In this document: positions 26,776 through 56,692 of the stretch, piece by piece
Numbering within the stretch: position 1 is the first letter of the stretch
Layout of the letters: every line of letters starts with the position of its first letter
Notes under the pieces: model-generated
Databases searched by the model: none
The model's input: only the letters and a program-made list of their open reading frames with translations
What the model was told of the DNA's origin: nothing
Assembly (NCBI RefSeq): GCF_056746865.1
Contig: NZ_CM163382.1
Strand: one strand, 5' to 3'
Length of the DNA stretch: 64,000 nt
Position numbers and translations under genes: made by a program

Positions 26776-29337
26776 ATGAGTGCAATAGAAAATTTCGATG
26801 CCCATACGCCCATGATGCAGCAGTATCTCAAGCTGAAAGCCCAGCATCCCGAGATCCTGCTGTTTTACCGGATGGGTGATTTTTATGAACTGTTTTATGA
26901 CGACGCAAAACGCGCGTCGCAACTGCTGGATATTTCACTGACCAAACGCGGTGCTTCGGCGGGAGAGCCGATCCCGATGGCGGGGATCCCCTACCATGCG
27001 GTGGAAAACTACCTCGCCAAACTGGTGAATCAGGGCGAGTCCGTTGCCATCTGCGAACAAATTGGCGATCCGGCGACCAGCAAAGGTCCGGTTGAGCGCA
27101 AAGTTGTGCGTATCGTTACGCCGGGCACCATCAGCGATGAAGCCCTGTTACAAGAGCGCCAGGACAATCTGCTGGCGGCTATCTGGCAGGACAGCAAAGG
27201 TTTCGGCTACGCGACGCTGGATATCAGTTCCGGTCGTTTTCGCCTGAGCGAACCGGCTGACCGGGAAACGATGGCGGCAGAACTGCAACGCACTAATCCG
27301 GCGGAACTGCTATATGCAGAAGATTTTGCTGAAATGTCGTTAATTGAAGGTCGTCGCGGTCTGCGCCGTCGTCCGCTGTGGGAGTTTGAAATCGACACCG
27401 CGCGCCAGCAGTTGAATCTGCAATTTGGCACCCGCGATCTGGTCGGTTTTGGCGTCGAGAACGCGCCGCGCGGACTTTGTGCTGCCGGTTGTCTGTTGCA
27501 GTATGCGAAAGATACTCAACGCACGACCCTGCCGCATATTCGTTCTATCACCATGGAACGTGAGCAGGACAGCATCATTATGGATGCCGCGACACGTCGT
27601 AACCTGGAAATTACTCAGAACCTGGCGGGCGGTGCGGAAAACACGCTGGCTTCAGTGCTCGACTGCACTGTAACGCCAATGGGTAGTCGTATGCTGAAAC
27701 GCTGGCTGCATATGCCAGTGCGCGATACCCGCGTGTTGCTTGAGCGCCAGCAAACTATTGGCGCATTGCAGGATTTCACCGCCGAGCTACAGCCGGTGCT
27801 GCGTCAGGTCGGCGACCTGGAACGTATTCTGGCACGTCTGGCTTTACGAACTGCTCGCCCACGCGATCTGGCCCGTATGCGTCACGCTTTCCAGCAACTG
27901 CCGGAGCTGCGTGCGCAGTTAGAAAATGTCGATAGCGCTCCGGTACAGGCGCTGCGTGAGAAGATGGGTGAGTTTGCCGAACTGCGCGATCTGCTGGAGC
28001 GGGCCATTATCGACACACCGCCGGTACTGGTGCGCGACGGTGGTGTTATCGCATCGGGCTATAACGAAGAGCTGGATGAGTGGCGCGCGCTGGCTGACGG
28101 CGCGACCGATTATCTGGAGCGTCTGGAAGTCCGCGAGCGTGAACGTACCGGCCTGGACACGCTGAAAGTCGGATTTAACGCGGTGCATGGTTATTACATT
28201 CAGATCAGCCGTGGACAAAGCCATCTGGCACCGATTAACTACATGCGCCGCCAGACGCTGAAAAACGCCGAACGCTACATTATTCCAGAGCTAAAAGAGT
28301 ACGAAGATAAAGTTCTCACCTCAAAAGGCAAAGCACTGGCACTGGAAAAACAGCTTTATGAAGAGCTGTTCGACCTGCTGTTGCCGCATCTGGAAGCGTT
28401 GCAACAGAGCGCAAGCGCACTGGCAGAACTTGATGTGCTGGTTAACCTGGCGGAGCGGGCCTATACCCTGAACTACACCTGCCCGACCTTCATTGATAAA
28501 CCGGGTATTCGCATCACCGAAGGCCGCCATCCGGTGGTTGAACAGGTACTGAACGAGCCATTTATCGCCAACCCGCTGAACCTGTCGCCGCAGCGTCGCA
28601 TGTTGATCATTACCGGTCCGAATATGGGCGGTAAAAGTACCTATATGCGCCAGACCGCACTGATTGCGCTGATGGCCTACATCGGCAGCTATGTACCGGC
28701 ACAAAAAGTCGAGATTGGACCTATCGATCGCATCTTTACCCGCGTAGGGGCAGCGGATGATCTGGCATCCGGGCGTTCAACCTTTATGGTGGAAATGACC
28801 GAAACCGCCAATATTTTACATAACGCCACCGAGTACAGTCTGGTGCTGATGGATGAGATTGGGCGTGGAACGTCCACTTACGATGGTCTGTCGCTGGCGT
28901 GGGCGTGCGCTGAAAATCTGGCGAATAAGATTAAGGCATTGACGTTGTTTGCTACCCATTATTTCGAGCTGACCCAGTTACCGGAGAAAATGGAAGGCGT
29001 GGCTAACGTGCATCTCGATGCACTGGAGCACGGCGACACCATTGCCTTTATGCACAGCGTGCAGGATGGCGCGGCGAGCAAAAGCTACGGCCTGGCGGTT
29101 GCAGCTCTGGCGGGCGTGCCAAAAGAGGTTATTAAGCGCGCACGGCAAAAACTGCGTGAGCTGGAAAGCATTTCGCCGAACGCCGCCGCTACGCAAGTAG
29201 ATGGTACGCAAATGTCTTTGCTGTCAGTGCCAGAAGAAACGTCGCCTGCGGTCGAAGCACTGGAAAATCTCGACCCGGATTCACTGACTCCGCGTCAGGC
29301 GCTGGAGTGGATTTATCGCTTGAAGAGTCTGGTGTAA
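26776..29337 (+). CDS. mutS: DNA mismatch repair protein MutS
   Basis: 853-aa ORF; Walker [10 protein letters not shown]. Confidence 0.95.
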
Positions 29338-29343
29338 TATTAA

Positions 29344-29370
29344 TGAGCCCCGATTAAACTTCGGGGCTCA
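29344..29370 (+). terminator. stem-loop after mutS
   Basis: tgagccccg-attaaactt-cggggctca perfect 9-bp stem; no clean T-tract. Confidence 0.45.
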
Positions 29371-29441
29371 TATATCTCTTATCCGATAGATAAAAAAGGA
29401 GTAAAATAAACACTATTAAGAACAAAACATTCAAGAAAAAA

Positions 29442-30305
29442 ATGAGAATAACGATTGCATCAATAATTTTAATAATTAGCGCCACTGCAATAGGCGCCGA
29501 AGATACCCCTTCACATTTTGATATTCCCGAGCAAGTATTAAATAATATTACGAAGGAATCACGAAATAAACTGCAGGATATCATTGCCAAGGCTCAACAT
29601 GGCGATAAAGCCTCACAAACGGTGATGGGACTCATATACCTGAATGGTCTATCTGAAAGTCCTTCAGTGAAGGATATAAACAAAGCATTTTATTGGCTCA
29701 ACCTTGCAGCAAAGCAAAATTATGATGAAGCTGAATTTTACTTAGGACAGATTTATCATTACGGATATGATAATACGGGGCCTAACTATCGTATTGCGAT
29801 ATACTGGTATGAGAAAGCGGCAGAAAAAGGGAATGAACAAGCTCAAATAAACTGTGCGAATATTTATCAATTTGGCCCACAGGAATTCCAAAACATTAAC
29901 AAAGCCAAGTATTGGCTTCAGAAAGCAGTACAGAAGGACAATCCTATTGCACATGCAAACTTAGGGATTATCGGAATTCAAGAGAATAAGTATGCTGAAG
30001 CTATCCCTCACTTAAAAATAGCGGCAGAAAAGGGTCAGCGACTCGGCCAATATAATTACGGGACACTTTTTTTTAATGGTCAGGGCGTTCCCAAAGATAT
30101 ACGACAGGCTAAATACTGGTTTGAGAAAGCTGCTACTCAAAACTTACCTATTGCACAAATTACTTTAGGACAAATTTATGCCTGGGGGCTTGATGGAAAT
30201 GGCATAAATAAAGAAGAAGCGTTGCTCTGGTTAAATAAAGCCAAAGCCCAAGGTCAATTTACTGATAAACAGATCAACGCCATTATTTCAAAAAAAATAG
30301 ACTAA
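29442..30305 (+). CDS. secreted Sel1-repeat (TPR-like) protein
   Basis: 287 aa; signal-peptide-like N-terminus MRITIASIILIISATAIGA; at least four repeats of KA.YW..KAA..G...AQ..LG.IY; AT-rich. Confidence 0.75.
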   Translation: MRITIASIILIISATAIGAEDTPSHFDIPEQVLNNITKESRNKLQDIIAKAQHGDKASQTVMGLIYLNGLSESPSVKDINKAFYWLNLAAKQNYDEAEFYLGQIYHYGYDNTGPNYRIAIYWYEKAAEKGNEQAQINCANIYQFGPQEFQNINKAKYWLQKAVQKDNPIAHANLGIIGIQENKYAEAIPHLKIAAEKGQRLGQYNYGTLFFNGQGVPKDIRQAKYWFEKAATQNLPIAQITLGQIYAWGLDGNGINKEEALLWLNKAKAQGQFTDKQINAIISKKID

Positions 30306-30329
30306 CTCCAAACCAAAATGCTCAAATCA

Positions 30330-30986
30330 ATGCCATCTATTCGCTATCACAAAATAGAATCATTTAATTATCGCCATATATGGGCCGTTGGTGATATTCA
30401 TGGCGATTATCAATTATTACAATCCCGCTTACACCAACTCTCTTTTTGCCCCGAAACTGACTTACTTATTTCCGTAGGCGATAATATTGATCGTGGGCCG
30501 GATAGTCTTAACGTGCTACGCCTGTTAAACCAGCCCTGGTTTACATCGGTTAAAGGCAACCACGAGGCAATGGCGCTTGATGCCTTCGCGACTGGCGATG
30601 GCAATATGTGGCTTGCCAGTGGCGGTGACTGGTTCTTTGAGTTAAATGATTCAGAACAAAAAGAAGCAATAGACCTGTTGCTTCGCTTTCATCATCTTCC
30701 GCATATTATAGAAATCACCAACGATATTATAAAATATGTTATCGCACATGCAGATTATCCGGGTGATGAATATCAGTTTGGCAAGGAAGTAGCGGAAAGA
30801 GAGGTACTCTGGCCTGTTGATCGCGTGCAGAAATCACTCAAAGGCGAGTTAAAAGAAATAAACGGTGCCGACTGTTTTATCTTCGGGCATATGATGTTTA
30901 CAAATATCCAGACATTTGCCAATCAGGTTTATATTGATACCGGCTCGCCGGAAAGCGGGCGGTTATCGTTTTATAAAATAAAATGA
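30330..30986 (+). CDS. pphB: serine/threonine protein phosphatase 2
   Basis: 218 aa from MPSIRYHKI; metallophosphatase motifs GDIHG, GDNIDRG, GNHE. Confidence 0.85.
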   Translation: MPSIRYHKIESFNYRHIWAVGDIHGDYQLLQSRLHQLSFCPETDLLISVGDNIDRGPDSLNVLRLLNQPWFTSVKGNHEAMALDAFATGDGNMWLASGGDWFFELNDSEQKEAIDLLLRFHHLPHIIEITNDIIKYVIAHADYPGDEYQFGKEVAEREVLWPVDRVQKSLKGELKEINGADCFIFGHMMFTNIQTFANQVYIDTGSPESGRLSFYKIK

Positions 30987-31027
30987 CAAGACCGGGTAAG
31001 GCAAAGCCTCTACCCGGCACTTTTTTA

Positions 31028-31264
31028 TTAACGCTTATCTGCCACCAGCAGTGGCGGAATGCTCGGCACCATTGGCGCGTCATCAATATCTTTCTGCGTC
31101 ATGCGGAACGCTTCGGGATAATGTTCGCGGCTGGTGCGGCGCAGCGGTTCGGTATCGCGCCAGGTATAGAGGCAATGCTGGCACTGGTAGACCGTCCAGA
31201 CATCTTTTACCGGCGATTTCGCCATCACTTCAATCTGTTCATCGGCACAACGTGGACAAATCAT
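31028..31264 (-). CDS. small zinc-ribbon subunit of UbiD/UbiX-type decarboxylase system
   Basis: 78 aa with CPRC...CQHC; immediately downstream of the UbiD-like gene in the same operon. Confidence 0.55.
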   Translation of the reverse strand: MICPRCADEQIEVMAKSPVKDVWTVYQCQHCLYTWRDTEPLRRTSREHYPEAFRMTQKDIDDAPMVPSIPPLLVADKR

Positions 31265-31274
31265 CTTGTTCTCC

Positions 31275-32702
31275 TTATTTACGTGCGGCCAGCATAGCGG
31301 TCAGTTTTTCAGCCCAGGCTTTGGTTTCCGGTAAATCCACCACCGGCTGGCTGTAGTGACCACGGTTGTCCGGGGCGACAGGCGTGGTGGCGTCGATAAT
31401 CAGCTTGTCGGTGATACCGGCCGGGCTTGAGCCGGGGTCGAGTTCCAGCACGGACATATTCGGCAACTGCACCAAATCCCCTGCCGGGTTCACTTTCGAG
31501 GAGAGCGCCCACATCACCTGCGGCAGGTTGAACGGATCAACGTCTTCATCGACCATAATCACCATCTTCACGTAGCCCAGACCGTGTGGCGTGGTCATCG
31601 CACGCAGGCCCACCGCGCGGGCAAAGCCACCGTAGCGTTTTTTGGTGGAGATAATCGCCAGCAGGCCGTGGGTGTACATGGCGTTCACCGCCTGCACTTC
31701 CGGGAACTCGGCTTTCAGTTGCTGATACAGCGGCACGCAGGTGGCTGGCCCCATCAGGTAGTCGATTTCCGTCCACGGCATCCCGAGATAGAGCGATTCA
31801 AAAATGGGTTTGCTGCGATAAGAGACTTTATCAATGCGCACGACGGTCATATTGCGCCCGCCTGAGTAGTGGCCGGTAAACTCACCGAATGGCCCTTCAA
31901 TCTCGCGTTTGCGGCTTTCGATGACTCCTTCGAGGATCACTTCCGAGCCCCAGGGTACATCAAAACCGGTCAGTGGGGCGGTGGCAATCGGGTACGGACT
32001 TTCGCGCAGCGCGCCCGCCATTTCGTACTCGGACTGATCATATTTCAGCGGCGTGGCCCCCATCAGCGTGATGATCGGATCGTTACCGAGCGTGATCGCA
32101 ATCGGCAGATCTTCACCGCGCTCTTCCGCTTTATGCAGATGCAGGGCAATATCGTGCATCGGCACCGGTTGCAGGCCGAGCTTACGTTTGCCTTTCACTT
32201 CCATACGATAGATACCGACGTTCTGCTTGCCGAAGTTATCCGGGTCGAGCGGATCGCGGGAAACTACGCACGCTTTGTCGAGATAGAAACCGCCATCACC
32301 GTCGTTTAAACGAAACAGTGGCAGAATATCGAACAGGTTAATCTCGTCGCCATCGACGGTGTTCTGCGCCCAGGCTGGATTGGCGCGGCGCTCCGGGGCA
32401 ATGGGGAAGTTATCCCAGCGGCGGATAAACTCATCAATCTGTTTTTTAACCGGGGTGTTTGGCGGCAGGCCGAGGGAAATCGCGTGGTTCTGCCAGGAAC
32501 CGATGGTGTTCATTGCCACGCGGGCATCGATAAAGCCGCGAATATTATCAAACCAAAGCGCGGGCGCGCCGTCGCCGATACGCCCGGTGGCGTTGGCTGC
32601 GGCTGCCAGATCCGGTTCCGCGTTCACCTCTTCGCTGATTTTCAGTAACTGGCCGTGGTCATCAAGCGCCTGTAAAAAGCTGCGTAAATCATCAAATGCC
32701 AT
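31275..32702 (-). CDS. UbiD-family (prFMN-dependent) aromatic acid decarboxylase
   Basis: 475-aa ORF with UbiD-family length and architecture; operon with UbiX-like gene. Confidence 0.8.
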   Translation of the reverse strand: MAFDDLRSFLQALDDHGQLLKISEEVNAEPDLAAAANATGRIGDGAPALWFDNIRGFIDARVAMNTIGSWQNHAISLGLPPNTPVKKQIDEFIRRWDNFPIAPERRANPAWAQNTVDGDEINLFDILPLFRLNDGDGGFYLDKACVVSRDPLDPDNFGKQNVGIYRMEVKGKRKLGLQPVPMHDIALHLHKAEERGEDLPIAITLGNDPIITLMGATPLKYDQSEYEMAGALRESPYPIATAPLTGFDVPWGSEVILEGVIESRKREIEGPFGEFTGHYSGGRNMTVVRIDKVSYRSKPIFESLYLGMPWTEIDYLMGPATCVPLYQQLKAEFPEVQAVNAMYTHGLLAIISTKKRYGGFARAVGLRAMTTPHGLGYVKMVIMVDEDVDPFNLPQVMWALSSKVNPAGDLVQLPNMSVLELDPGSSPAGITDKLIIDATTPVAPDNRGHYSQPVVDLPETKAWAEKLTAMLAARK

Positions 32703-33295
32703 TATTCATTCTCCTGAGAAAAATTCCGGGCCTGCGGCAATCCTTGCCAGCGCCTGGCGTGAGGATGTTCGAGGCCAAATTGATCCAGCACGCGGGCTAC
32801 CACATGGTGGACAATGTCATCTACCGTTTCGGGATGGTTATAAAAGGCAGGCATCGGCGGCACCATCGCCACACCCATGCGCGAAAGTGCGAGCATATTT
32901 TCGAGATGGATTGTGCTAAGCGGCATTTCACGCGGCACCAGCACCAGTTTGCGGCCTTCTTTGAGCACGACGTCCGCCGCGCGCCCTACGAGACCATCGG
33001 CGTAACCAGCGCGGATACCGGCGAGCGTTTTCATACTGCATGGAATAACGATCATGCCGTCGGTACGAAAGGAGCCGGAAGAGATAGTCGCAGCCTGATC
33101 CGCCGGGTTATGGCTGAAGTCTGCGAGGGCGGCAACATCGCGAGCGCTGTAAGGCGTTTCCAGTTCAATGGTGGTTTTCGCCCACTTCGACATCACCAGA
33201 TGAGTCTCGACATTCGGCATCTCCCGCAGCGCTTGCAGTAATGCCACCCCAAGAGGCGCACCGGTAGCCCCTGTCATCCCGACGATCAGTCTCAT
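32702..33295 (-). CDS. UbiX/Pad1-family flavin prenyltransferase
   Basis: 197 aa; N-terminal MRLIVGMTGATGA flavoprotein fold; overlaps UbiD-like start. Confidence 0.8.
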   Translation of the reverse strand: MRLIVGMTGATGAPLGVALLQALREMPNVETHLVMSKWAKTTIELETPYSARDVAALADFSHNPADQAATISSGSFRTDGMIVIPCSMKTLAGIRAGYADGLVGRAADVVLKEGRKLVLVPREMPLSTIHLENMLALSRMGVAMVPPMPAFYNHPETVDDIVHHVVARVLDQFGLEHPHARRWQGLPQARNFSQENE

Positions 33296-33408
33296 TGTTT
33301 ATTCTCTTAATTGTTCGTATACGAACGTTATTATTAAAATACGCCTCTGTTTTCATCGCGGCAAGCACTGAAAAGTAACAACATCTTCTTCGTCACTGAA
33401 AAACCGCT

Positions 33409-33849
33409 ATGATAGCGGCAGATAGTTTGCCCGGAGTTTACATGGCGTTACGAAATAAAGCGTTCCATCAGTTACGACAGCTTTTTCAGCAGCACACGGC
33501 TCGCTGGCAGCACGAGTTACCTGACCTCACCAAACCACAGTACGCGGTGATGCGCGCCATTGCTGATAAGCCTGGTATTGAACAGGTGGCACTGATAGAA
33601 GCAGCAGTCAGCACCAAAGCAACGCTGGCAGAAATGTTGGCAAGAATGGAAAATCGTGGCTTAGTCAGACGTGAACATGACGCCGCTGACAAGCGGCGAC
33701 GCTTTGTCTGGCTGACTGCCGAAGGAGAAAAGGTACTTGCTGCGGCGATACCGATTGGTGACAGTGTGGATGCGGAATTTTTGGGGCGTTTGAGTGGAGA
33801 AGAGCAGGAGCTGTTTATGCAGCTGGTGCGCAAGATGATGAGCAAATAG
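33409..33849 (+). CDS. MarR/SlyA-family transcriptional regulator
   Basis: 146 aa with winged-HTH pattern; divergent from decarboxylase operon. Confidence 0.75.
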   Translation: MIAADSLPGVYMALRNKAFHQLRQLFQQHTARWQHELPDLTKPQYAVMRAIADKPGIEQVALIEAAVSTKATLAEMLARMENRGLVRREHDAADKRRRFVWLTAEGEKVLAAAIPIGDSVDAEFLGRLSGEEQELFMQLVRKMMSK

Positions 33850-33925
33850 GATGCTGATTGCCGGGTAGGACGCTGACGAGTCTTATCCAGGCGACAAAAC
33901 ACACCGACTTCCCAAACAAAAGAAA

Positions 33926-33953
33926 AAGGCCAGCCTCGCTTGAGACTGGCCTT
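33926..33953 (-). terminator. rho-independent terminator of rpoS
   Basis: aaggccag...ctggcctt stem; on the minus strand followed by ttttcttttgtttggg (plus 33910-33925). Confidence 0.55.
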
Positions 33954-33969
33954 TCTGACAGATGCTTAC

Positions 33970-34962
33970 TTACTCGCGGAACAGCGCTTCGATATTCAGC
34001 CCCTGCGTTTGCAGGATTTCGCGCAAACGGCGCAGGCCTTCAACCTGAATCTGGCGAACACGTTCACGGGTGAGGCCAATTTCACGACCTACATCTTCCA
34101 GTGTTGCCGCTTCGTACCCCAGCAAACCGAATCGACGTGCCAGCACTTCACGCTGTTTGGCGTTCAGCTCGAACAGCCATTTGACGATGCTCTGCTTCAT
34201 ATCGTCATCTTGCGTGGTATCTTCCGGACCGTTCTCTTTTTCATCGGCCAGGATGTCCAGCAACGCTTTTTCGGAATCACCACCCAGCGGGGTGTCTACC
34301 GAGGTAATGCGCTCGTTAAGACGAAGCATACGGCTGACGTCATCAACTGGCTTATCCAGTTGCTCTGCGATCTCTTCCGCACTTGGTTCGTGGTCCAGTT
34401 TATGGGACAACTCGCGTGCGGTTCGCAGGTAAACGTTCAGCTCCTTTACGATGTGAATCGGCAAACGAATAGTACGGGTTTGGTTCATAATCGCCCGTTC
34501 GATCGTCTGGCGGATCCACCAGGTTGCGTATGTTGAGAAGCGGAAACCACGTTCCGGGTCAAACTTCTCTACCGCGCGGATCAGCCCCAGGTTGCCCTCT
34601 TCGATCAGGTCCAACAGCGCCAGACCACGATTGCCATAACGGCGGGCAATCTTCACGACCAGACGCAGGTTACTTTCAATCATCCGGCGACGTGAAGCGA
34701 CATCTCCACGCAGTGCGCGACGCGCGAAATAAACTTCTTCTTCGGCCGTTAACAGTGGCGAATAACCAATCTCACCAAGGTAAAGCTGAGTCGCGTCCAA
34801 CACACGCTGTGTGGCCCCTTGCGATAACAGCTCCTCTTCAGCCAAATCGTTATCACTGGGTTCCTCTTCAACTAAGGCTTTCTCGTCAAAAACCTCAACT
34901 CCGTTCTCATCAAATTCCGCGTCTTCATTTAAATCATGAACTTTCAGCGTATTCTGACTCAT
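33970..34962 (-). CDS. rpoS: RNA polymerase sigma factor sigma-S
   Basis: 330-aa full-length ORF with sigma70-family regions 2-4; codon 33 is GAG (Glu). Confidence 0.95.
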
Positions 34963-35024
34963 AAGGTGGCTCCTACCCGTGATCCCTTGACGGAACTAGC
35001 AAGCAAAAGCCTGGTTCCGCCGAA

Positions 35025-36164
35025 TTATCGCTGCGGTAAATAACGCAGCGGGTTTACGGATTTCCCCTTGTAACGAATTTCAAAATGCAAGCGTGTTGAA
35101 CTGGTTCCGGTGCTACCCATGGTTGCTATTTTTTGCCCCGCCTTCACTTCTTGTTGTTCCCGGACCAGCATTGTGTCGTTATGGGCGTAGGCACTCAGGT
35201 AATCATCATTATGTTTGATGATAATCAGATTACCGTAGCCGCGCAGCGCGTTACCGGCATAAACAACGCGGCCATCTGCGGTCGCGATAATTGCCTGTCC
35301 TTTGCTGCCTGCGATATCAATCCCCTTGTTGCCCCCCTCAGAAGCGCCAAAGGTTTCGATCACTTTGCCCTCAGTCGGCCAGCGCCAGGTGGAGATAGGC
35401 GTACTGGTTGATGTACTGCTGACAGTCGGCTCGGTTGTGCTTGCTGTTGGTACCGTTACAGGCGCTGTGACCGTGGTCGCAGTTGGCTTGTTGTTCGGCA
35501 ACATTTTGTTAGCACTCTGTTCACCCGAAGACTCAGAATACGTAATTGTCGGTTGCGACGCAACAGCAACGGTGGAATTTTGTGCAGGCTTGATCACAAC
35601 TCCTTGCTCTGCTGCGTCGGCCTGGGTAATGGCATTTCCGCCAGTGATTGGCGTACCGGAAGCATTACCCACCTGTAAGGTCTGACCGACGTTCAGCGCG
35701 TATGGTGCCTGAATATTGTTGCGCTGAGCAAGGTCACGGAAATCGTTGCCAGTAATCCAGGCGATATAGAAAAGTGTGTCGCCTTTTTTCACGGTATAGG
35801 TACTGCCGCTATAACTGCCTTTCGGAATGTTCCCATACTGACGGTTATAGACGATGCGTCCGTTTTCCATCTGTACCGGCTGCTGAGCTACTGGCTGTAC
35901 TGGCTGGATTTGCGGTTGTTGAGTAGCCTGAATTTGTGGCTGCTGTACCGGCTGAATTTGCGGTTGCTGCGCTGTAGACGTCGTTCCCATTTTCGGCGGT
36001 GGCGTAATCAACATACCAGAATTGGTATTTGCAGGCGCATTGCCATTAACGGAGCTTACCGGTGCCGGTGGATTTGAAGTGTCAGAACAGCCTGCCAGCC
36101 ATAGCGAAACCAGTGACAAAGCCGCAATGCGGCGAACGGTGAATTTTGGGCTTCCCGCGCTCAT
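35025..36164 (-). CDS. nlpD: murein hydrolase activator lipoprotein NlpD
   Basis: 379 aa; lipoprotein signal (LAGCS), LysM, Q/P-rich repeat, C-terminal M23 peptidase-like domain. Confidence 0.9.
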
Positions 36165-45049: not shown

Positions 45050-46176
45050 GGGAGTTCTACCGCAGGGGCGGGGAACTCCAAGTGATGTCCATCATCGCAT
45101 CCAGTGCGTCCGGTTTATCCCCGCTGACGCGGGGAACACACATGAATGTCGGTTCAGACCGTGTTTTTACCCGGTTTATCCCCGCTGGCGCGGGGAACAC
45201 TGCCTCGGCGGCGGCTCTGCGCAACCGCGAAACGGTTTATCCCCGCTGGCGCGGGGAACACGTTAAACCGTGATGATCAGCAAAAGCTATTTCCGGTTTA
45301 TCTCCGCTGACGCGGGGAACACGTCAATAGGCGGCGTCCCGTAGCCGTCCCCTTCGGTTTATCCCCGCTGGCGCGGGGAACACTTGAAATGGTCCAGCAC
45401 TGCGACCGTCGGCCCCGGTTTATCCCCGCTGGCGCGGGGAACACGCTGGTGGCGCGGGCAAACGGAACAATCCCGCCGGTTTATCCCCGCTGGCGCGGGG
45501 AACACGCTAACCTATAACACGGAAAATCACACGCTAACGGTTTATCCCCGCTGGCGCGGGGAACACGGCCATTCCCCCAAGCAGACGCAGGAAGTTAACG
45601 GTTTATCCCCGCTGGCGCGGGGAACACCTGGATTTCACCTCAGCAAATGCTGGATGTGGCGGTTTATCCCCGCTGGCGCGGGGAACACCACCCCTGATAT
45701 TTTTGCCACCGTGGTTACTCCGGTTTATCCCCGCTGGCGCGGGGAACACAGAAATCAAACTCAGCGTGCAAATGGGGTAGCCGGTTTATCCCCGCTGGCG
45801 CGGGGAACACTTGCGTTATTTCTATCTGGTGAGTCGCGGCACCGGTTTATCCCCGCTGGCGCGGGGAACACGTATTTTTTATCGTCGCATGAGTCGCGGT
45901 AACCGGTTTATCCCCGCTGGCGCGGGGAACACTTCTGCCGCGCCAGCAAACGTATCGGCGGTCACGGTTTATCCCCGCTGGCGCGGGGAACACCCCAGGC
46001 CAAGCATTATATCCTGTGCGTCGTTCGGTTTATCCCCGCTGGCGCGGGGAACACACCAAGAAGCTGACGAATCAGCCCGACACGCACGGTTTATCCCCGC
46101 TGGCGCGGGGAACACCCAGTTTCATATGAGCCGCCGCGCTGGATCATCGGTTTATCCCCGCTGGCGCGGGGAACAC
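45050..46176 (-). CRISPR. type I-E CRISPR array: 18 full 29-bp repeats plus one degenerate terminal repeat, 18 spacers of 32 bp
   Basis: repeat cggtttatccccgctggcgcggggaacac at exact 61-bp period starting 45111 through 46148; variants at 45111 and 45294; degenerate copy 45050-45078; leader on the cas2 side. Confidence 0.97.
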
Positions 46177-46272: not shown

Positions 46273-47482
<1,210 letters not shown>

Positions 47483-47486
<4 letters not shown>

Positions 47487-48133: not shown

Positions 48134-48837
48134 GGTTCCTCCTTGCTGAGCCACGGCCCCTGATTGACGGTGCGTTCCCCAAACAACCATTGCTGACGAT
48201 TTAAAGGAACATCCCGGCGGCGCAATATTTTGCTCGCGACCAGGCCGTCGTGCTCCCCTTCCCACCAGCATTCATCCTGAAGTTTCGGGAGTGCGATTTT
48301 CAGGTCGTGGAAATGCTCCTGATACTGGTGATATGCGTTACGTAAAACATCAGACGCGTTGCCTTCAAGCAGTAACGGCGCAAGTGGTAATGCCAGCGGA
48401 TGACTTTTTCGCCCCAGATAAAGCGGAAAAACTGGATGGCGTAAACCGCCCTGCAACTGTTCGAGGCTGTAAGGCGCATCGGCTGTTGTTGCCACCGCCA
48501 CCATCCACCAGGCGTCGGTGTAGTAGTCGCGCCGGGAGATAATCGCGCTCAGAAGATCAGGGTCGCTCAACTCTTCGCGACGGCTGAAATAACGCGCTTT
48601 ACGCACCTCTTTTGGCATCTGGATTGTGTGATAATCCCGTGCCCAGCGCGGGTTACGGCTGGCGCAAACCACCAGTGAATAGTGGCGGTTAAACACGTTT
48701 AATCGTTCGGTATCATCACGCCGAATCCCTACCCCGGCAGCCAGCAGCCCCAGCAATGCTGAGCGCGAAGGCAGTTCATGGGTATGACGCACTTCGCCCG
48801 CTCCAAACAAACATTTCTCAACGTCTACTGAAGTCCA
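48115..48837 (-). pseudogene. cas5e: cas5e (casD) lacking its 5-prime end
   Basis: frame reads ...HELPSRSALLGLLAAGVGIRRDD (Cas5 glycine-rich motif) but hits a stop at 48838-48840 with no ATG; upstream is AT-rich island DNA. Confidence 0.65.
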
Positions 48838-48969
48838 TCAAATCCACGAATATCAAGCCTTTCAGCCATTTTCATAGCTTATTAACGTCTACTCACAACT
48901 ACCAGAATCTACACACAGAAGTGTATAGTAATGCGTATAGGACAAAATTTATTTTTTGGAGCTATACAC

Positions 48970-50184
48970 ATGCTGCTTTCAGACCTTGCTATCAGGCGCG
49001 CGAAGCCGAAAGAAAAGGCTTATACACTCAATGACGGTAACGGGCTTTCGTTACTCATTGAGCCGAACGGCTCGAAAGGGTGGCGACTACGTTACAGATT
49101 TGCAGGAAAGCCCAAAATGTTGTCGTTGGGCGTGTACCCTGATGTGTCTCTGTCTGATGCCAGAGCGGCAAGGGATGAGGCTAAAAGGCTTCTTGCTGGT
49201 GGTATAAATCCAAGTGAGGCCAGAAAAGCTCAAAAGCGAGAACAGGCGAGCAAATTTGGCAATACTTTTGAGGGTATCGCTCGCGAATGGTATGAAAAGC
49301 GGATCGACAGGTGGTCATCGTCATACGCCGAGGAAATGATCGAGACGTTTGAAAAAGACGTTTTTCCGTACATTGGCGGCAGGCCGATCGCAGAAATTAA
49401 GCCAATGGAGTTGCTTGCGGTTCTCTCCCGTCTTAATGACCGTGGGGCGACCGAAAAATTGCGTAAGGTTCGCCAGCGATGCGGCGAGGTGTTCCGGTAC
49501 GCAATCATCACCGGACGCGCTGAATATAACCCCGCACCAGATCTGGCAAGCGCATTTGCTCCACACAAAAAAGAGCATTATGCCTATTTGAAGGCCGACG
49601 AACTGCCGGAATTTTTCCGCGTTCTTAATACGTACACCGGAAGCCAGATCGTCAAGCTGGGTATGCGATTATTGATTCTGACAGGGCTCCGGCCAGGGGA
49701 ATTACGACAGGCAGAATGGCAGGAGATCGATTTTGATAATCGTTTGTGGGAAGTGCCTAAAGAACGAATGAAGATGCGCCGTCCTCATTGTGTGCCGCTT
49801 TCAGAACAGGCGATCGCTATTCTGGAACAGTTAAAACACATGACGGGGCAGTATCAGTTTATTTTCCCTGGTCGAATCCAGCACAGTAAGCCGATGAGTG
49901 AAATGGCGATGAACGTGCTTATTCGTCGTATTGGCTATTCTGGGCGCGTTACTGGTCATGGGTTCCGGCACACGATGAGCACGATTTTACATGAGCAGGG
50001 CTATAACACCGCGTGGATAGAAACGCAGCTTGCACACGTTGATAAGAACTCAATTCGTGGCACGTACAATCATGCGCAATATCTGGACGGGCGGCGCGAG
50101 ATGCTCCAGTGGTACGCCGACTATATGGACTCACTGGAACAGGGCGGCAACGTGGTGCATGGCAAGTTCGGAAAATGTGGATGA
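48970..50184 (+). CDS. int: tyrosine recombinase, P4/CP4-57-type integrase
   Basis: 404 aa from MLLSDLAIRRAK; N-terminal arm-binding-like domain; C-terminal catalytic GHGFRHT and RGTYNHAQY. Confidence 0.9.
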   Translation: MLLSDLAIRRAKPKEKAYTLNDGNGLSLLIEPNGSKGWRLRYRFAGKPKMLSLGVYPDVSLSDARAARDEAKRLLAGGINPSEARKAQKREQASKFGNTFEGIAREWYEKRIDRWSSSYAEEMIETFEKDVFPYIGGRPIAEIKPMELLAVLSRLNDRGATEKLRKVRQRCGEVFRYAIITGRAEYNPAPDLASAFAPHKKEHYAYLKADELPEFFRVLNTYTGSQIVKLGMRLLILTGLRPGELRQAEWQEIDFDNRLWEVPKERMKMRRPHCVPLSEQAIAILEQLKHMTGQYQFIFPGRIQHSKPMSEMAMNVLIRRIGYSGRVTGHGFRHTMSTILHEQGYNTAWIETQLAHVDKNSIRGTYNHAQYLDGRREMLQWYADYMDSLEQGGNVVHGKFGKCG

Positions 50185-50312
50185 CTGGTTGAGTATACAG
50201 TAGTAGACTTTGAGCGACGAAAGAAAAAGCTGTGTCTAGGGTCGCTCCCGAAAAACCGTATACCTCGACGGGCTGGCACAGCCACTACAGTAGAGGACGC
50301 TGAGGTGTGCGT

Positions 50313-51110
50313 ATGATTGATATTCATGCCGAATTAAACGAATACAAAAAAGATTTTATTTCTTTACGTGAATTTCTTGAGGTCGTGCTTAAGGTCGCTG
50401 GTGATGATTATGATGTTTCAGATCTCATAACTTGGATACTCAGGAGAATAAGCGGAGAACATATCCGCCTGTACACAGTAAATGAATTTAAGCTGTTGGA
50501 ATCTTTTTGTAACCCGTATCGGGATGAATTTGATTATGATGTTCTTTATAGAAATCTGGATGCGGTTCGGAAACATGGTTGTTTACCTGGTGAGAGGGAT
50601 GAAAATGGTTTTCTGGTGTCCGGTTATTGGGAAGATCCCGAATTTGAGAACATTGGATTTATAAGGGGTGAAATTTTCGCAATTTTTCCCGATGTCCTTG
50701 ACGCGTTAACGAAGCTGGAAGGCGCTAACTCTTCTGAAAATGACGAGGTACAAGGACGCGATATTGAAAAGAAAGAGTTGCGTACAGAGGATGATTTATT
50801 ATCCCAAATCGCAATGCTGGAAAGAGAAAACGCAGAGTTAAGGGCAAGGATAGAGCAGTTAGAGCAAGAGCGCCCGATACACTTATATAAATACTGGGAT
50901 AAAGACCCATTAGCTAAGGCTATTGAGATTAGAAACAGAGAGTGGGCCAATTACGATCCAGAAAATGATTTTGCCACCAGGGGAAATCAAGAAGCGATAA
51001 CTAGGGAGCTTAAGCAGTGGGGGGCAAGTAATGCTCTTGCAACGCTCATAGAGAGGACTGCCTGCCCTATTAACCGAGACAACAGCCAAAAGAACGCAAA
51101 GCCGGATTAA
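50313..51110 (+). CDS. hypothetical protein (island cargo, unknown function)
   Basis: 265 aa from MIDIHAELNEYKK with RBS gagg; acidic, central coiled-coil-like segment (AMLERENAELRARIEQLEQE); no recognisable motifs. Confidence 0.6.
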   Translation: MIDIHAELNEYKKDFISLREFLEVVLKVAGDDYDVSDLITWILRRISGEHIRLYTVNEFKLLESFCNPYRDEFDYDVLYRNLDAVRKHGCLPGERDENGFLVSGYWEDPEFENIGFIRGEIFAIFPDVLDALTKLEGANSSENDEVQGRDIEKKELRTEDDLLSQIAMLERENAELRARIEQLEQERPIHLYKYWDKDPLAKAIEIRNREWANYDPENDFATRGNQEAITRELKQWGASNALATLIERTACPINRDNSQKNAKPD

Positions 51111-51125
51111 CGCACCATACCGCAT

Positions 51126-51270
51126 ACCCTGAGGGTGATTTACTGTTACCCTGAGGGTATTTTTTTATCTTCCCCGTCAATTTTACCATCACCCTTAGGG
51201 TAGATTTCCTCCCGATTACCATCACCCTTAGGGTTAATTTCCTTCCGGTAACCATTAGGCCTGAGGGTAT
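51126..51270. repeat. five copies of palindrome CCCT(G/T)AGGG within ~33-bp tandem repeats
   Basis: ccctgaggg 51127-51135 and 51149-51157; cccttaggg 51192-51200 and 51225-51233; cctgaggg 51260-51267; 33-bp units at 51184 and 51217. Confidence 0.6.
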
Positions 51271-51337
51271 GAAAATATTCGTTATTTCTGTGCCATGATT
51301 ACCTCGTCAAATTGAGTAGACGTTATGAGGTAAATAG

Positions 51338-51535
51338 ATGTCAAATACGCTTATTCGTTTAACAGAAGTTCAGCGTAGAACTGGATATAGCAAGGCATGG
51401 ATTTATCGCCTTATGGGGCAAGGTAAATTTCCTGCATCAGTTAAAATTGGCTCGCGAGCGATTGCTTTCGTTGAAAGTGAAATTGACGAATGGATCAATC
51501 AGCGTATTGCCGAATCACGCGGAACGGCTGCCTGA
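51338..51535 (+). CDS. alpA: AlpA/Vis-family HTH regulator (excisionase-like)
   Basis: 65 aa MSNTLIRLTEVQRRTGYSKAWIYRLMGQGKFPASVKIGSRAIAFVESEIDEWI; classic AlpA pattern. Confidence 0.8.
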   Translation: MSNTLIRLTEVQRRTGYSKAWIYRLMGQGKFPASVKIGSRAIAFVESEIDEWINQRIAESRGTAA

Positions 51536-51610
51536 TTAAATAGCTACGGGTTATTGCCCAAGCTATCCACTAGCAAATAAAAAGTAACTTAATTCGATAG
51601 CGGAGTTTTT

Positions 51611-52435
51611 ATGAAACTGCGAAAAACGCCCGTACAGGGGCAGGGCTTTGTTCGGCCTGAAAACCAGAATCTGCAAAATTTCGGCGAAATTATCCCGGTT
51701 ATTTCCGGCGTTATTGGCGGGCGTGAAGCCGCTGTTGTTAGCGCAAAAGCGTTACACAAAGCGTTGGGCGTGGGAAAAGACTTCTCTACATGGATCACTG
51801 ATCGTATCTCTGAATATGACTTCACCATTGGGTACGATTACTCAGTCCATAAAACAATTTCCCCAAATTTGGGGAAAAGCCCGAATGGCGAGGCTTACAG
51901 CAAGATTAAGCACTCTGGCAGACCCGGTAAAGACTATCTGTTAAGTGTCGGAATGGCGAAAGAACTGGCAATGATCGAACGCACCGAACAGGGCCGCGCC
52001 GTTCGTCAGTACTTCATCAAATGCGAGGAGGAGCTACACAAGGTAGCGCCTGTACGTTCCGCAGCGTTACGCCGGGAACTGAAAGCCCGTATCACCGTAG
52101 CCAGCTACTTTAAGCCAATGTGTGCCGCGCTGGAGGCGTACCGGGCTGAACTGGGTAAAAACACGCTCCAGCACCACTACACCACGGAAGCCAATATGCT
52201 GGCGCGTATCGTGCTGGGTGGCATGAATGCAAAACAGTGGGCGCAGGCGAACGGCATCACAGGCGAACCACGCGACCACATGAGCACGCTGCAGCTTGAG
52301 CACCTTTCTTACCTTGAGCAGAGCAATATCACGCTGATTGAGTTAGGCCAGGACTACCACCAGCGGAAAGCTGAATTAATTCGTCTTTCGCAACGCTGGT
52401 TAGCCCGCCGCATGGAGGTGAGCAGCCATGCGTAA
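51611..52435 (+). CDS. phage antirepressor-like protein (AntA/Rha-type)
   Basis: 274 aa; motif DFSTWITDRISEYDF...DYLLSVGMAKELAMI...RQYFI resembles antirepressor N-terminal domains. Confidence 0.55.
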   Translation: MKLRKTPVQGQGFVRPENQNLQNFGEIIPVISGVIGGREAAVVSAKALHKALGVGKDFSTWITDRISEYDFTIGYDYSVHKTISPNLGKSPNGEAYSKIKHSGRPGKDYLLSVGMAKELAMIERTEQGRAVRQYFIKCEEELHKVAPVRSAALRRELKARITVASYFKPMCAALEAYRAELGKNTLQHHYTTEANMLARIVLGGMNAKQWAQANGITGEPRDHMSTLQLEHLSYLEQSNITLIELGQDYHQRKAELIRLSQRWLARRMEVSSHA

Positions 52436-52985
52436 ACCTGTCTTTTATGCCGGTCGCACTGAAATCTCTGTCATTAAATTCGATGACATTCAGGTGCGCA
52501 TAGTGAGTATCAACGGCGAGCCGTGGTTTGTTGGCGCTGATGTGTGTGCCGCGCTGGAAATCAGCAATGTTACTGATGCCGTTTCAGTTCTGGATAACGA
52601 TGAGGTAATGACCCTAGCTTTAACCGAGGGTCATTCCGGTAAGCGTGGTGGTGCCAGAAGCTGGAATGTTGTCTCTGAATCAGGTTTCTACAAACTGATC
52701 GCCCGCAGCCGTAAAGCTTCCACACCAGGCACATTTGCGCACCGTTTCAGTAACTGGGTATTCCGCGAGGTGATTCCTTCAATCCGCAAAACGGGGGGTT
52801 ATGGTGTTCCGTTTGCCATGCTGAATGATTTCAGTAAACGTCAGGCTGCATATCAACAGGAAGCCAGCAAACGCGGTTACAGGTTACAGCAATGCAAAGA
52901 GGCAAAAGATGCACTGGAACGAGAAGAGCGGGCGCTATGGCGTAAATATCAGCCTGATTTTCTGGAGGGTGAAAGCAATGTGTAA
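52428..52985 (+). CDS. Bro-N domain protein (antirepressor family)
   Basis: 185 aa; VIKFDDIQVRIVSINGEPWFVGADVCAALEISNVTDAVSVLDNDE matches Bro-N signature; overlaps upstream gene. Confidence 0.7.
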   Translation: MRKPVFYAGRTEISVIKFDDIQVRIVSINGEPWFVGADVCAALEISNVTDAVSVLDNDEVMTLALTEGHSGKRGGARSWNVVSESGFYKLIARSRKASTPGTFAHRFSNWVFREVIPSIRKTGGYGVPFAMLNDFSKRQAAYQQEASKRGYRLQQCKEAKDALEREERALWRKYQPDFLEGESNV

Positions 52986-53153
52986 CGATCCGAACGTTAC
53001 AGAAAGAAAAAGCGCCCCGTTGCTGGATAACAGGCAAAACAAAGGCGACCGGGATAGGTCGCCAGTGGGAACAAAGGAAATCAAACGCATCGCCAACAAT
53101 GCCAGATTTGCGGCTGGTGGGCAATGTGATCAGTGTGCTGGCTTGCTGGTGGG

Positions 53154-53351
53154 CTATTCCTGCTCTTTAGCATCGCCATACTGCGATGTTTTCCAGGTAT
53201 GCGATTCCATTTTTGTGCGCCTGTACTCTTTTAAGAACTTCTCAAGGACAAACGCACATGGCGCAAATCTTTCCTGTTCTTGTTCGCTTACCGCATTTTT
53301 GCGTTGTTTTTTCCTGGATGAGGATAATTTCTTTAATGATTTGTCAGTCAT
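53154..53351 (-). CDS. small basic protein, paralog of the adjacent 65-aa ORF
   Basis: 65 aa; shares C-terminal ...AFVLEKF...AKEQE pattern with neighbour; weak RBS. Confidence 0.4.
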   Translation of the reverse strand: MTDKSLKKLSSSRKKQRKNAVSEQEQERFAPCAFVLEKFLKEYRRTKMESHTWKTSQYGDAKEQE

Positions 53352-53408
53352 CGTAGATACCTGTAACCCTGTGCGCCACAGTTCACCGCACCACGGCGCT
53401 GGTGATGG

Positions 53409-53606
53409 TTACTCCTGCTCTTTGGCCTTCCGGCGCTGTTCATATTTTAATTTGCGTCCACAGGCATCTAAGACCCATGCGGAAAAATTAGCACTAGGAT
53501 TAGTTAATTTTTCTTGTTCAACACTGGCATCAATCCCATCTATAAGCTCGTGCGGGAATCGAATATTTTTCTTTGCTGATTTGTTGTTTGTGTTTCCGCT
53601 AGACAT
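53409..53606 (-). CDS. small ribbon-helix-helix-like DNA-binding protein
   Basis: 65 aa; RBS gaggtg; KKNIRFPHELIDGIDASV resembles Arc/CopG beta-strand plus helix. Confidence 0.5.
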   Translation of the reverse strand: MSSGNTNNKSAKKNIRFPHELIDGIDASVEQEKLTNPSANFSAWVLDACGRKLKYEQRRKAKEQE

Positions 53607-53635
53607 TGGTACACCTCACTTAAATGGATTTGATG

Positions 53636-53711
53636 GGCGCACACAATACAGCAAAAAAAGTGAGAAGTTAAGTATTGACATGTGCGCACACATGATTTTA
53701 ATCTGTGCGCA
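53636..53711. promoter_or_regulatory. divergent promoter/operator region with three GTGCGCA(C) palindromes
   Basis: ggcgcac 53636-53642, gtgcgcac 53682-53689, gtgcgca 53705-53711; TTGACA 53675-53680 with TTTAAT 53697-53702. Confidence 0.45.
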
Positions 53712-53810
53712 AGTTTGGGTTGCATTGCTCAAATTAAGCAACGCCCCGCAGTGCTCGCAACACATGCAGGGCGTCTAACCACCAACGATAGAAAGCGTAT
53801 CGAGGTAGCT

Positions 53811-54014
53811 ATGTTAAATCATACCACACACCCGCAAGGGCGGGACTCGCACAACCTGAATAAATACATCTGGCGTTTTATCGCCCTGAGCACCGCACAA
53901 CCACGCGTAATACACATCGAGGCCGCCAGCGAACAGGAAGCCCGTCAGCAATCCCCGGCTGGCTGCGTGATGGTATTTACTGCCCGCATCCGTCAGGGGG
54001 AATACTATGCGTGA
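53811..54014 (+). CDS. small hypothetical protein (possibly Icd-like)
   Basis: 67 aa from MLNHTTHPQG with RBS gagg; YIWRFIALSTAQPRVIHIEAASEQEARQQ; assignment by weak recall. Confidence 0.4.
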   Translation: MLNHTTHPQGRDSHNLNKYIWRFIALSTAQPRVIHIEAASEQEARQQSPAGCVMVFTARIRQGEYYA

Positions 54015-54264
54015 TGAACGATTTATTCTTCTGGAGCAAAAATTCAGTGAAGCGCCAAAAAATGAAATTGATGCTCTTTTGCATATCGCGAATATGCTAA
54101 AAGTAGCAACGTTCCTTATAGTTTCGAATCTGGAGCATGAAACGGCGTTAGATATACTGAACAGTGCTGTCGATTATTCTGAATATATTGCCGAGGATAA
54201 ATACAGGCAATTACCAGATTTGTTAGCCCATAAATATAAAGAAGAACCTCACACCGGGAAATAA
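54007..54264 (+). CDS. hypothetical protein
   Basis: 85-aa ORF overlapping neighbours on both sides (translational coupling). Confidence 0.5.
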   Translation: MRDERFILLEQKFSEAPKNEIDALLHIANMLKVATFLIVSNLEHETALDILNSAVDYSEYIAEDKYRQLPDLLAHKYKEEPHTGK

Positions 54265-54266
54265 AC

Positions 54267-54569
54267 ATGAAGAAGATTAAATTTACTGGCTTAAATGCCA
54301 GCGGACAGACTCACCCGAAAATCAGGATCGGGGATATTTTCCGGGATAAATATGGTGACAGCGTGGTTATTAATTCCGTGTATGAACGGCACATTACATA
54401 CCGCCGCGCAGGGTACGACTATGACTGTGTGATGCCCGTTCATCAGTTCCGGCGTGATTTTTCACTGGTATGTGCAGCACCACGCAGTAAGCCCACCAGT
54501 AAAGAGAAAGCACGGGCAAATATTCAGGTAATAAAGAACATGATTAACGCATTCAGGGGCAAGAAATGA
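54267..54569 (+). CDS. hypothetical protein
   Basis: 100-aa ORF; stop overlaps start of the 708-aa gene. Confidence 0.5.
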   Translation: MKKIKFTGLNASGQTHPKIRIGDIFRDKYGDSVVINSVYERHITYRRAGYDYDCVMPVHQFRRDFSLVCAAPRSKPTSKEKARANIQVIKNMINAFRGKK

Positions 54570-56692
54570 AACGCGCACCGAATTTAAAGCACCAGCCGAA
54601 AGACAAAATGACGGAGGTGATTATCTTTGCGGGTAGTGATGCCTGGGCACATGCGAAAGAGTGGAGCGAATGGGCCGGAAAGCATATTGCGGCAGATGAT
54701 ACACATCCAGTTATTCTTGGACCGGAACAACTGGCGAGTCTGGCAGACACGCAAATCATCGACAAAGGGCGCTATTACGTGCGCGTTTATCGTGCTGGTG
54801 AAATATCAGAGCAGCACCTTACACAGATAGCGACACTGCTTGCAGTGGCGGGTGTGAAGGAGGCGCGTTGCTACCGCAGCTTTGTTGATCAGCAGCCGGA
54901 GGACTGGACACCGCGCATGGCTGGACTGAAGGATGATGCGGAACGCGGTAACAGTCTGGTGATCAACCTTCCGGCGAAGACAAATTTCACCGGAAATTAT
55001 GATGACGAATTAAAGCCTCGTGTTGAAAGTCGCGTCGATGGTGTTTTCTGGGTAACGCCCAAAGTGGACAAGCAGTCAGGCGAAATTATCCGGCCTGAGA
55101 CGTGGTTATGTTCTCCGCTTGAACTACTGGGAACAGGAACAATCGGCAAAGAGCATTACCGCGTGATGCGCTGGAAAAAACCAGCAAACCATGAGGTCAT
55201 TACAATGGCGGTCCCGTGCGGAGGCATTGGTGACCGTGACGGCTGGCGGTTGCTGAAAGACCACGGCCTTAACGTGACGACCAACGGCAAATACAGGGCT
55301 ATCTTGGCTGACTGGATGCAGTTAAGCGGAAACCATGAGGAATGGCAGTTAAGCACAACAACGGGGTGGCATTTTGGTGCGTACATCATGCCGGATGGTT
55401 CGATCATCGGTGAATCAGAGAAACCCATCCTGTTTACCGGAAAAACTGCCGCTGTTAATGGCTATTCCGTGGCGGGAACAGCGGAGGGCTGGCGCGATAC
55501 CGTGGCACGGCTGGCTGGTGGTAATCCGTCCATGATGCTGGGTGTGGCGGTATCGCTATCTGCACCATTAATCGGGCTGGTGGGTGCTGACGGCTTCGGG
55601 GTTCATCTTTTTGAGCAATCATCAGCAGGTAAAACCACCACACAGAACATTGCATCAAGTTTATGGGGAGAGCCGGACGCGCAACGGCTGACCTGGTACG
55701 GAACGGCGTTAGGTATCGCCAACGAGGCCGAAGCACATAATGACGGGCTGTTACCCCTGGATGAAATAGGCCAGGCCGGAAACGCACGGGAGGTGTCCAC
55801 GTCAGCCTATACGCTGTTTAACGGTTCCGGGAAATTACAGGGGGCGAAGGACGGCGGCAACAGGGAGATAAAACACTGGCGTACGGTGGCAATCAGCACC
55901 GGAGAAATGGACGTTGAAACATTCCTCAAAACGGAAGGGATAAAAATTAAAGCGGGACAGCTTGTCCGTCTGCTTAACGTACCGATGGAAAAGGCCTCGC
56001 AGTTTCACGAATACAGCACCGGAAAGGCGCACGCAGACGCGTTAAAAGATGCCTGGACAGAAAATCACGGGGCGGCAGGTCGTGAGTGGGTTAAATGGCT
56101 GGCAGGCCACCAGCAGGAGGCAAAGGACGCGGTAAGGGCATGTCGCGAGCGGTGGCGCAACCTGATACCGGAGAGCTACGGCGAGCAGGTTCACCGTGTG
56201 GGGGAAAGATTCGCCGTACTGGAGGCCGCGCTTGTGCTTTCCGGTCATGTTACAGGCTGGGATGTTCAGGCGTGCCGTGATGCAGTTCAGCATAACTTTA
56301 ATGCCTGGGTGAAGGAATTCGGCACGGGCAACAGGGAATTTAAACAGATGGTTGAACAGGCTGAGGCGTTTTTGTCGTCGTTCGGGTTCAGTCGATACCT
56401 TCCCTATCCAAACAGCGACGAGCGTGATTTACCGATTAAAGACCTTGCCGGATACAGAAAGGGGAGTATCAGAAACGAAGATGACGAGTTCCGTTTTTAC
56501 ACGTTCCCGCATGTGTTTGAGGGTGAGATAGCACAGGGATTTAATCCGTCTCACTTTGCCCGCGCGTTGAGTGCAGCCGGAATGCTGGAAGCGGGAGGCG
56601 ACCGCCGTTACAAGAAAAAGGCGCTCGGCAGGATTGGCGGGAAGCAACATATTTTTTACGTGCTGATGTTCCAGCCTGAAGCAGAAGATTAA
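54566..56692 (+). CDS. putative replication initiator (primase/helicase-like P-loop protein)
   Basis: 708 aa; Walker-A-like FEQSSAGKTT; directly upstream of iteron cluster and SSB gene. Confidence 0.65.
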   Translation: MKRAPNLKHQPKDKMTEVIIFAGSDAWAHAKEWSEWAGKHIAADDTHPVILGPEQLASLADTQIIDKGRYYVRVYRAGEISEQHLTQIATLLAVAGVKEARCYRSFVDQQPEDWTPRMAGLKDDAERGNSLVINLPAKTNFTGNYDDELKPRVESRVDGVFWVTPKVDKQSGEIIRPETWLCSPLELLGTGTIGKEHYRVMRWKKPANHEVITMAVPCGGIGDRDGWRLLKDHGLNVTTNGKYRAILADWMQLSGNHEEWQLSTTTGWHFGAYIMPDGSIIGESEKPILFTGKTAAVNGYSVAGTAEGWRDTVARLAGGNPSMMLGVAVSLSAPLIGLVGADGFGVHLFEQSSAGKTTTQNIASSLWGEPDAQRLTWYGTALGIANEAEAHNDGLLPLDEIGQAGNAREVSTSAYTLFNGSGKLQGAKDGGNREIKHWRTVAISTGEMDVETFLKTEGIKIKAGQLVRLLNVPMEKASQFHEYSTGKAHADALKDAWTENHGAAGREWVKWLAGHQQEAKDAVRACRERWRNLIPESYGEQVHRVGERFAVLEAALVLSGHVTGWDVQACRDAVQHNFNAWVKEFGTGNREFKQMVEQAEAFLSSFGFSRYLPYPNSDERDLPIKDLAGYRKGSIRNEDDEFRFYTFPHVFEGEIAQGFNPSHFARALSAAGMLEAGGDRRYKKKALGRIGGKQHIFYVLMFQPEAED

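Follow-up and report, generated by a model that had tools for sequence, protein, structure and literature searches.

The rpoS gene of the window, the whole 64,000-nucleotide stretch of DNA that was analysed, is very probably the ordinary, intact chromosomal rpoS of a natural, non-K-12 Escherichia coli, and its sequence would specify the canonical 330-residue σS (σ38) with the ancestral glutamate at position 33. From this we conclude that the source of the window was a natural isolate and not a K-12 laboratory strain. An intact natural-isolate rpoS with Glu33 is already known and is textbook material. The leader and 5' part of the gene lie within a divergent tract of ca. 525 bp whose coding changes are all synonymous; this tract adds a little to the mosaic structure already described for the mutS-rpoS region, and it could be used as a lineage marker.

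Integrity of rpoS, its product and its operon context

A single open reading frame of 330 codons followed by TAA occupies positions 33970..34962 on the minus strand. It starts with ATG, contains no internal stop codon, and is identified as rpoS by the open reading frame list, by homology, and by the RefSeq annotation of EF5-18-41, which differs from window positions 1-48798 by one mismatch and carries rpoS at identical coordinates (protein WP_000081550.1). The first-pass annotation had described rpoS as full length over 330 codons, with ctc on the plus strand at 34864-34866 specifying Glu at codon 33. Both statements were confirmed: the frame is uninterrupted from ATG to TAA, and direct reading of the minus strand gave gaa gag gaa for codons 32-34, with codon 33 (GAG, as opposed to TAG, CAG, or TAT) running from 34866 to 34864. 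The alignment with reference rpoS alleles that had been proposed as a check was carried out, and identified Glu33 as the common natural state and Q33E as the sole amino acid change relative to MG1655 RpoS (329 of 330 residues identical).

Profile searches assigned the product to σS. The NCBIfam RpoS equivalog model NF004207 scored 604.6 bits (cut-off 394) and TIGR02394 scored 480.7 (cut-off 378.7), while the NCBIfam RpoD and RpoH models all stayed below their own cut-offs. All four σ70 regions were found in order by Pfam, each above its gathering score: Sigma70 r1_2 (PF00140, residues 56-88), r2 (PF04542, 94-163), r3 (PF04539, 174-248), and r4 (PF04545, 262-315). Residue 33 lies before region 1.2, in an acidic N-terminal segment with 17 Asp or Glu among the first 55 residues. 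The σS chains of solved holoenzyme structures align with the window protein over its full length; position 33 is Glu in the 5IPL family and Gln in 6KJ6, and the 5IPL-family chain differs from the window protein solely at its residues 2 and 329. Lys173, which we take to be the residue needed for RssB-mediated ClpXP degradation of σS, is present in the context HIVKELN.

The protein is annotated under the same accession, WP_000081550.1, in 118UI, EF5-18-41, AR_0137, Ecol_AZ153, ABU 83972, H10407, and O157:H7 611, and the index of the assembly collection has the exact sequence in 102,853 blocks. Since the window RpoS is this common natural form, a hidden defect in the gene (a frameshift, an I128-type substitution, or loss of K173) was considered and rejected. 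An in-frame GTG is present at codon 54 and is irrelevant with an intact reading frame.

The gene lies directly downstream of nlpD (35025..36164, minus strand; from the open reading frame list and the annotation of 118UI and EF5-18-41) in the surE-pcm-nlpD-rpoS cluster recognised from open reading frames and annotation, and the stretch between the rpoS terminator and ispD, both included, is collinear with K-12. The rpoS 5' leader (34963..35529, minus strand) begins inside nlpD; for its length (567 nt) and for the rpoSp start site we follow published work (Takayanagi 1994, as cited in PMC5405132). A scan of 33800-35700 for a consensus σ70 promoter gave no match, so that rpoSp was not confirmed by pattern, and the promoter was placed instead by the sequence at the reported start site (around -567), which is 100% identical in K-12. 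The leader is also identical to K-12 at -130..-95, the sRNA-pairing upstream strand of the translation-inhibitory stem (about 35057-35092), and at -30..-1, the Shine-Dalgarno region. No Rfam family covers the rpoS leader, the sole Rfam match in the window being an int-alpA RNA far from rpoS. Fourteen nucleotides past the rpoS stop codon, a terminator scan revealed an intrinsic-terminator-like hairpin with a 15-bp stem and a T-run (33923..33956, minus strand). The hairpin matches K-12 except at its outermost base, 33923, where K-12 homology stops; the K-12 alignment ends at window position ~33924, just past the terminator.

By analogy with what is established for E. coli rpoS, the window gene would be controlled in the usual manner. 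Its product, a group-2 factor of the σ70 family, would bind core RNA polymerase and direct the general stress regulon. The long leader, transcribed from within nlpD, would fold over the ribosome-binding site and hold σS synthesis down, Hfq-dependent small RNAs would open this inhibitory structure, and the stability of σS would be set by RssB/ClpXP through Lys173. The activity of rpoS also hinges on trans factors encoded outside the window, including rssB, hfq, crl, and the small RNAs. We infer from the sequence that σS would be expressed and active. As the gene for the general stress sigma factor is intact in sequence, σS-dependent phenotypes (acid, oxidative, and starvation tolerance, and biofilm formation) are expected in the source lineage.

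The state of codon 33 across genomes

To count alleles of codon 33, three 30-mers spanning rpoS nt 94-123 and differing solely at the first base of the codon were searched against 5,426 complete E. coli genomes. The variable base was at query position 4 and megablast was run with a 28-nt word, so that a match demands the allele in question. GAG (Glu) was found in 5,050 of the 5,426 genomes (93.1%), CAG (Gln) in 174 (3.2%), and TAG (amber) in 121 (2.2%); ca. 69 genomes with rpoS that matched none of the three probes, and 12 without any rpoS match, lie outside these counts. The counts quantify a point that is usually stated anecdotally.

All of the 60 CAG matches listed (of 174) look K-12-derived, as judged from strain name, source label, or genome size, with MG1655, BW25113, MC4100, and DH10B among them. 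The 60 TAG matches listed (of 121) include W3110, EMG2, WG1, J53, NCM3722, HMS174, and the K-12/B hybrid BLR(DE3), and the remaining TAG genomes among the matches listed are likewise apparent K-12 derivatives or hybrids. The earlier statement that K-12 lineages carry Gln or an amber codon at this position is thereby supported. Six diverse natural isolates were fetched, namely H10407 (phylogroup A), ABU 83972 (B2), O157:H7, and three more; every one has GAG and encodes the same protein accession as the relatives of the window. When the K-12 allele was compared over nt 42-573 with that of H10407, its nearest natural allele, codon 33 was the sole difference.

A codon-degenerate scan of metagenomes for Escherichia-type rpoS N-termini, with codon 33 left open, yielded 73 loci, of which 72 covered the codon. 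GAG was present in 71 of these 72 Enterobacteriaceae genes, and the single CAG gene is K-12-like. The loci with GAG extend to other genera, where nlpD is merely 77-83% identical to that of the window. Because GAG prevails in the metagenomic genes, other genera included, we take GAG (Glu33) to be the ancestral state, and TAG and CAG to be specific to K-12. The literature agrees: every VTEC strain examined, and natural isolates too, had GAG at codon 33 (PMC2700278), and the part of PMC5379014 that quotes Hayashi 2006 gives rpoS(Am) as the K-12 wild type and the Gln33 of MG1655 as a pseudorevertant. The K-12 variants arose from GAG by single-base steps: the original K-12 stock acquired the amber codon (GAG to TAG), which pseudoreverted to Gln (TAG to CAG) in strains of the MG1655 type. 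The reading of the window gene as a wild-type allele holds at the level of sequence, with the genome census, the metagenomic genes, and the published record in accord.

The equivalence of Glu33 and Gln33 is not universally assumed, since PMC6892915, a transcriptome paper in wide use, links a non-MG1655 residue at this position to lower RpoS activity. In that work, the residue found in BL21(DE3), HS, and Crooks is called a 'divergent mutation' and is offered as a possible cause of lower activity of the RpoS regulon, the RpoS i-modulon being less active in strains that have it. The observation favours a reading in which Glu33 is a derived variant of reduced activity and the Gln33 of MG1655 is the true reference state. 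We consider this very improbable. Such a polarity conflicts with the predominance of GAG (93% of complete genomes; 71 of 72 homologues, other genera included), as well as with the confinement of CAG to K-12 laboratory derivatives among the matches listed; moreover, TAG in the archival K-12 stocks EMG2 and WG1 fits CAG as the pseudorevertant. As judged from these allele distributions, the polarity that takes Gln33 as reference is already contradicted, and the Gln33 of MG1655 that is used as a 'reference' is the derived state. The polarity given in PMC6892915 deserves caution; if its divergent residue is Glu, it would be the ancestral one. The same paper gives CFT073 and EDL933 as amber at rpoS codon 33. 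For EDL933 this conflicts with PMC2700278, where the codon is GAG, and O157:H7 611 also has GAG in the present data.

A divergent tract in the leader and 5' part of rpoS

Alignment of eight rpoS alleles with their flanks yielded a map of sites private to the lineage of the window, and 26 private substitutions were concentrated in a tract of ca. 525 bp at 34513..35037 (minus strand), a putative imported recombination patch. The tract corresponds to -75..+450 of rpoS; it takes in the final 13 nt of nlpD, the leader between the two genes, and rpoS nt 1-450 (codons 1-150), with codon 33 inside. Against 26 private sites in these 525 bp (5.0%), the upstream 2,383 bp contain 8 (0.34%) and the downstream 590 bp contain none, and the probability of such clustering is 2e-15. 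Five of the changes fall in the leader, at -74, -61, and -36..-34 (AAT to CTA at 34999..34997). All 21 changes in the coding part are synonymous, with P = 7e-14 for random mutation. Over the whole gene the window DNA has 28 differences from K-12 (27 synonymous), all within nt 42-573, and the last 420 nt are identical.

The distribution of the tract among genomes is bimodal. At least 99% identity to the window over rpoS and the tract was observed in 156 of 5,414 genomes, and the next best identity sampled was 95.9%; no intermediates were seen among the sampled E. coli genomes, and every top-listed genome match to the window rpoS allele was at 100%. A look-up of the exact protein sequence returned ten places, of which one, an ENA metagenome contig (L010), has an allele identical to that of the window; the others are ordinary, again with no intermediates. 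Among the closest relatives of the window is 118UI, which PMC8900328 lists as ST69/phylogroup D, and the 156 genomes that share the tract look like ST69/phylogroup D-like relatives.

The window diverges from ordinary E. coli by 5.5% in this interval, more than the 2.7-2.9% that separates E. coli here from L058 and L022, two more divergent metagenome contigs of Escherichia-like type. As many as 17 of the 26 private states are also found in more distant genera, and one metagenome locus from another genus (L036) has the same five leader states as the window. In its 3' part the window gene differs from the other alleles by 0.7-1.1% and is an ordinary E. coli one. These sequence comparisons are best explained by homologous recombination, with a short segment imported from the functional rpoS of a putative donor outside the sampled Escherichia clade.

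A donor with the same tract and divergent flanks was not found in the GTDB species representatives or in the metagenome scans. For the species representatives, a 30-mer from the tract containing six private sites was used as the probe. Its sole match was the rpoS of Marinospirillum perlucidum (Oceanospirillales), where rpoS nt 283-312 of the window are identical over exactly 30 nt to positions 7017-7046 of the M. perlucidum contig, in a conserved region-2 motif. This gene was rejected as the donor: as overall identity is just 77% over 347 nt, we regard the shared 30 nt, on the sequences compared, as a coincidence of codon choice and not as a sign of transfer. A tract-specific 30-mer from the leader had zero matches in metagenomes. 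Among the 73 metagenome loci, none was nearer to the tract than ordinary E. coli is, with the exception of one (L035) at 97.5%. This locus, a human gut metagenome contig of 1,554 bp at 1.65x coverage, has the states of the window solely at nt 237-450 and those of ordinary E. coli at nt 42-204. Either the tract is shorter here or was overwritten in part, or two strains were joined in a chimeric assembly.

The tract might also matter for regulation. It covers -75..+450 of the rpoS mRNA, including the block change of three nucleotides at -36..-34, and it is fixed in a successful lineage of 156 complete genomes; both points are consistent with a full-length gene whose RpoS set-point is altered, the 5 leader and 21 synonymous changes shifting mRNA folding, sRNA activation, stability, or translation rate. 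This we consider unlikely. Minimum free energy folding of -150..+30 gave essentially the same structure for the window and for K-12 (-54.7 versus -54.3 kcal/mol), with the CTA block predicted to lie in an internal loop. The sRNA-pairing strand and the Shine-Dalgarno region are identical to those of K-12, the coding changes are synonymous throughout, and the same leader states in another genus are compatible with a working rpoS. In neither the predicted fold nor the known regulatory stretches was there any sign of a regulatory change, and the five leader substitutions are predicted from the fold to be neutral. The wider proposal, that the lineage took its leader (-75..-1) and codons 1-150 from an enterobacterial donor outside the sampled Escherichia and that the result may be a natural regulatory allele with a heritably different σS set-point, is likewise improbable, slightly more so.

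It is very improbable that errors in sequencing or assembly, or a local burst of mutation, gave rise to the divergent 5' part of rpoS: the short, low-coverage contig with part of the tract alone could be a chimeric assembly, but the allele is replicated at 99% identity or more in 156 complete genomes and identically in the ENA metagenome contig, which refutes an artefact, and a burst of mutation is at odds with coding changes that are synonymous at 21 of 21 sites and, like an artefact, with the recurrence of up to 17 private states in other genera. No published description of a 525-bp intragenic tract was found in a limited literature search.

Neighbouring features and comparison with known alleles and mosaic patterns

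Further along the window, positions 48792-64000 are occupied by a P4-like integrative element that adjoins a truncated type I-E cas5e. The element encodes a tyrosine integrase (48931-50184) and a DUF927 primase-like protein (54566-56692), has the int-alpA RNA detected by Rfam at 50229-50296, and also encodes large hypothetical proteins, an SSB, and antA/BRO antirepressors. Other strains have this element, with 99.7% identity, at a tRNA-Gly gene next to actS. Seven nucleotides (48792-48798) are common to both alignments at the junction of the element with cas5e, and among 5,426 complete genomes just one, ETEC1747, has this junction. The arrangement suggests a rare integration event at a secondary site, by which the cas operon was disrupted. 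A type I-E cas1e (46563-47486, minus strand) is annotated as a pseudogene with an internal stop in EF5-18-41 and 118UI, both of which are nearly identical to the window in this part, and a CRISPR array of ~1.07 kb persists at 45111-46176. The cas1e pseudogene and the disruption of cas5e suggest decay of CRISPR-Cas in the lineage.

When rpoS of the window is set against named alleles, the natural Glu33 form represented by WP_000081550.1 (O157:H7, ABU 83972, and H10407) is 100% identical in protein and has the same position in the nlpD-rpoS operon, the same leader elements, and the same terminator; at nt 42-573 these three alleles have 23-29 synonymous differences from the window, which derive from the lineage-specific tract. 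The MG1655 gene (b2741, NP_417221.1) shares 329 of 330 residues, the last 420 nt, and identical promoter and sRNA-pairing regions with the window, but has CAG (Gln33) where the window has GAG, plus 27 synonymous differences. The K-12 rpoS(Am) allele of W3110, EMG2, WG1, and J53 has TAG at codon 33, one base from the GAG of the window, whereas the window has no stop there. The amber allele affects σS synthesis, to judge by the title of Subbarayan & Sarkar 2004 and by citations of that work.

Downstream of rpoS, annotation of EF5-18-41 and 118UI identifies a MarR/slyA-like regulator (33442-33849, plus strand), hydroxyarylic acid decarboxylase genes B (32702-33295), C (31275-32702), and D (31028-31264), all on the minus strand, and, on the plus strand, pphB (30330-30986), a TPR protein gene (29442-30305), and mutS (26776-29337). 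In K-12, ygbI-ygbN lies downstream of rpoS, whereas in the window this place is taken by the MarR and decarboxylase cassette. The interval from mutS to the regulator (26776..33849) is accordingly the short polymorphic form, ygbN/o454-negative and without ygbI-ygbN. Mosaicism is known to be concentrated in the mutS-rpoS region, and earlier studies of it were reportedly made by LeClerc, Herbelin, Culham, and Kotewicz.

Four o454-nlpD patterns (I-IV) of the mosaic region are described in PMC4209514, pattern I being the O157-type that occurs in phylogroup D and ABD strains. The interval of the window, with a slyA-like gene and kpdBCD and negative for ygbN/o454, corresponds to 'pattern I' of that scheme. 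In that scheme the patterns refer to which genes lie between rpoS and mutS, whereas the tract of the window is intragenic and lies in the leader and 5' part of rpoS. Given the mosaic nature of the region and the pattern I interval of the window, the tract is one more case of the recombination already known at this locus.
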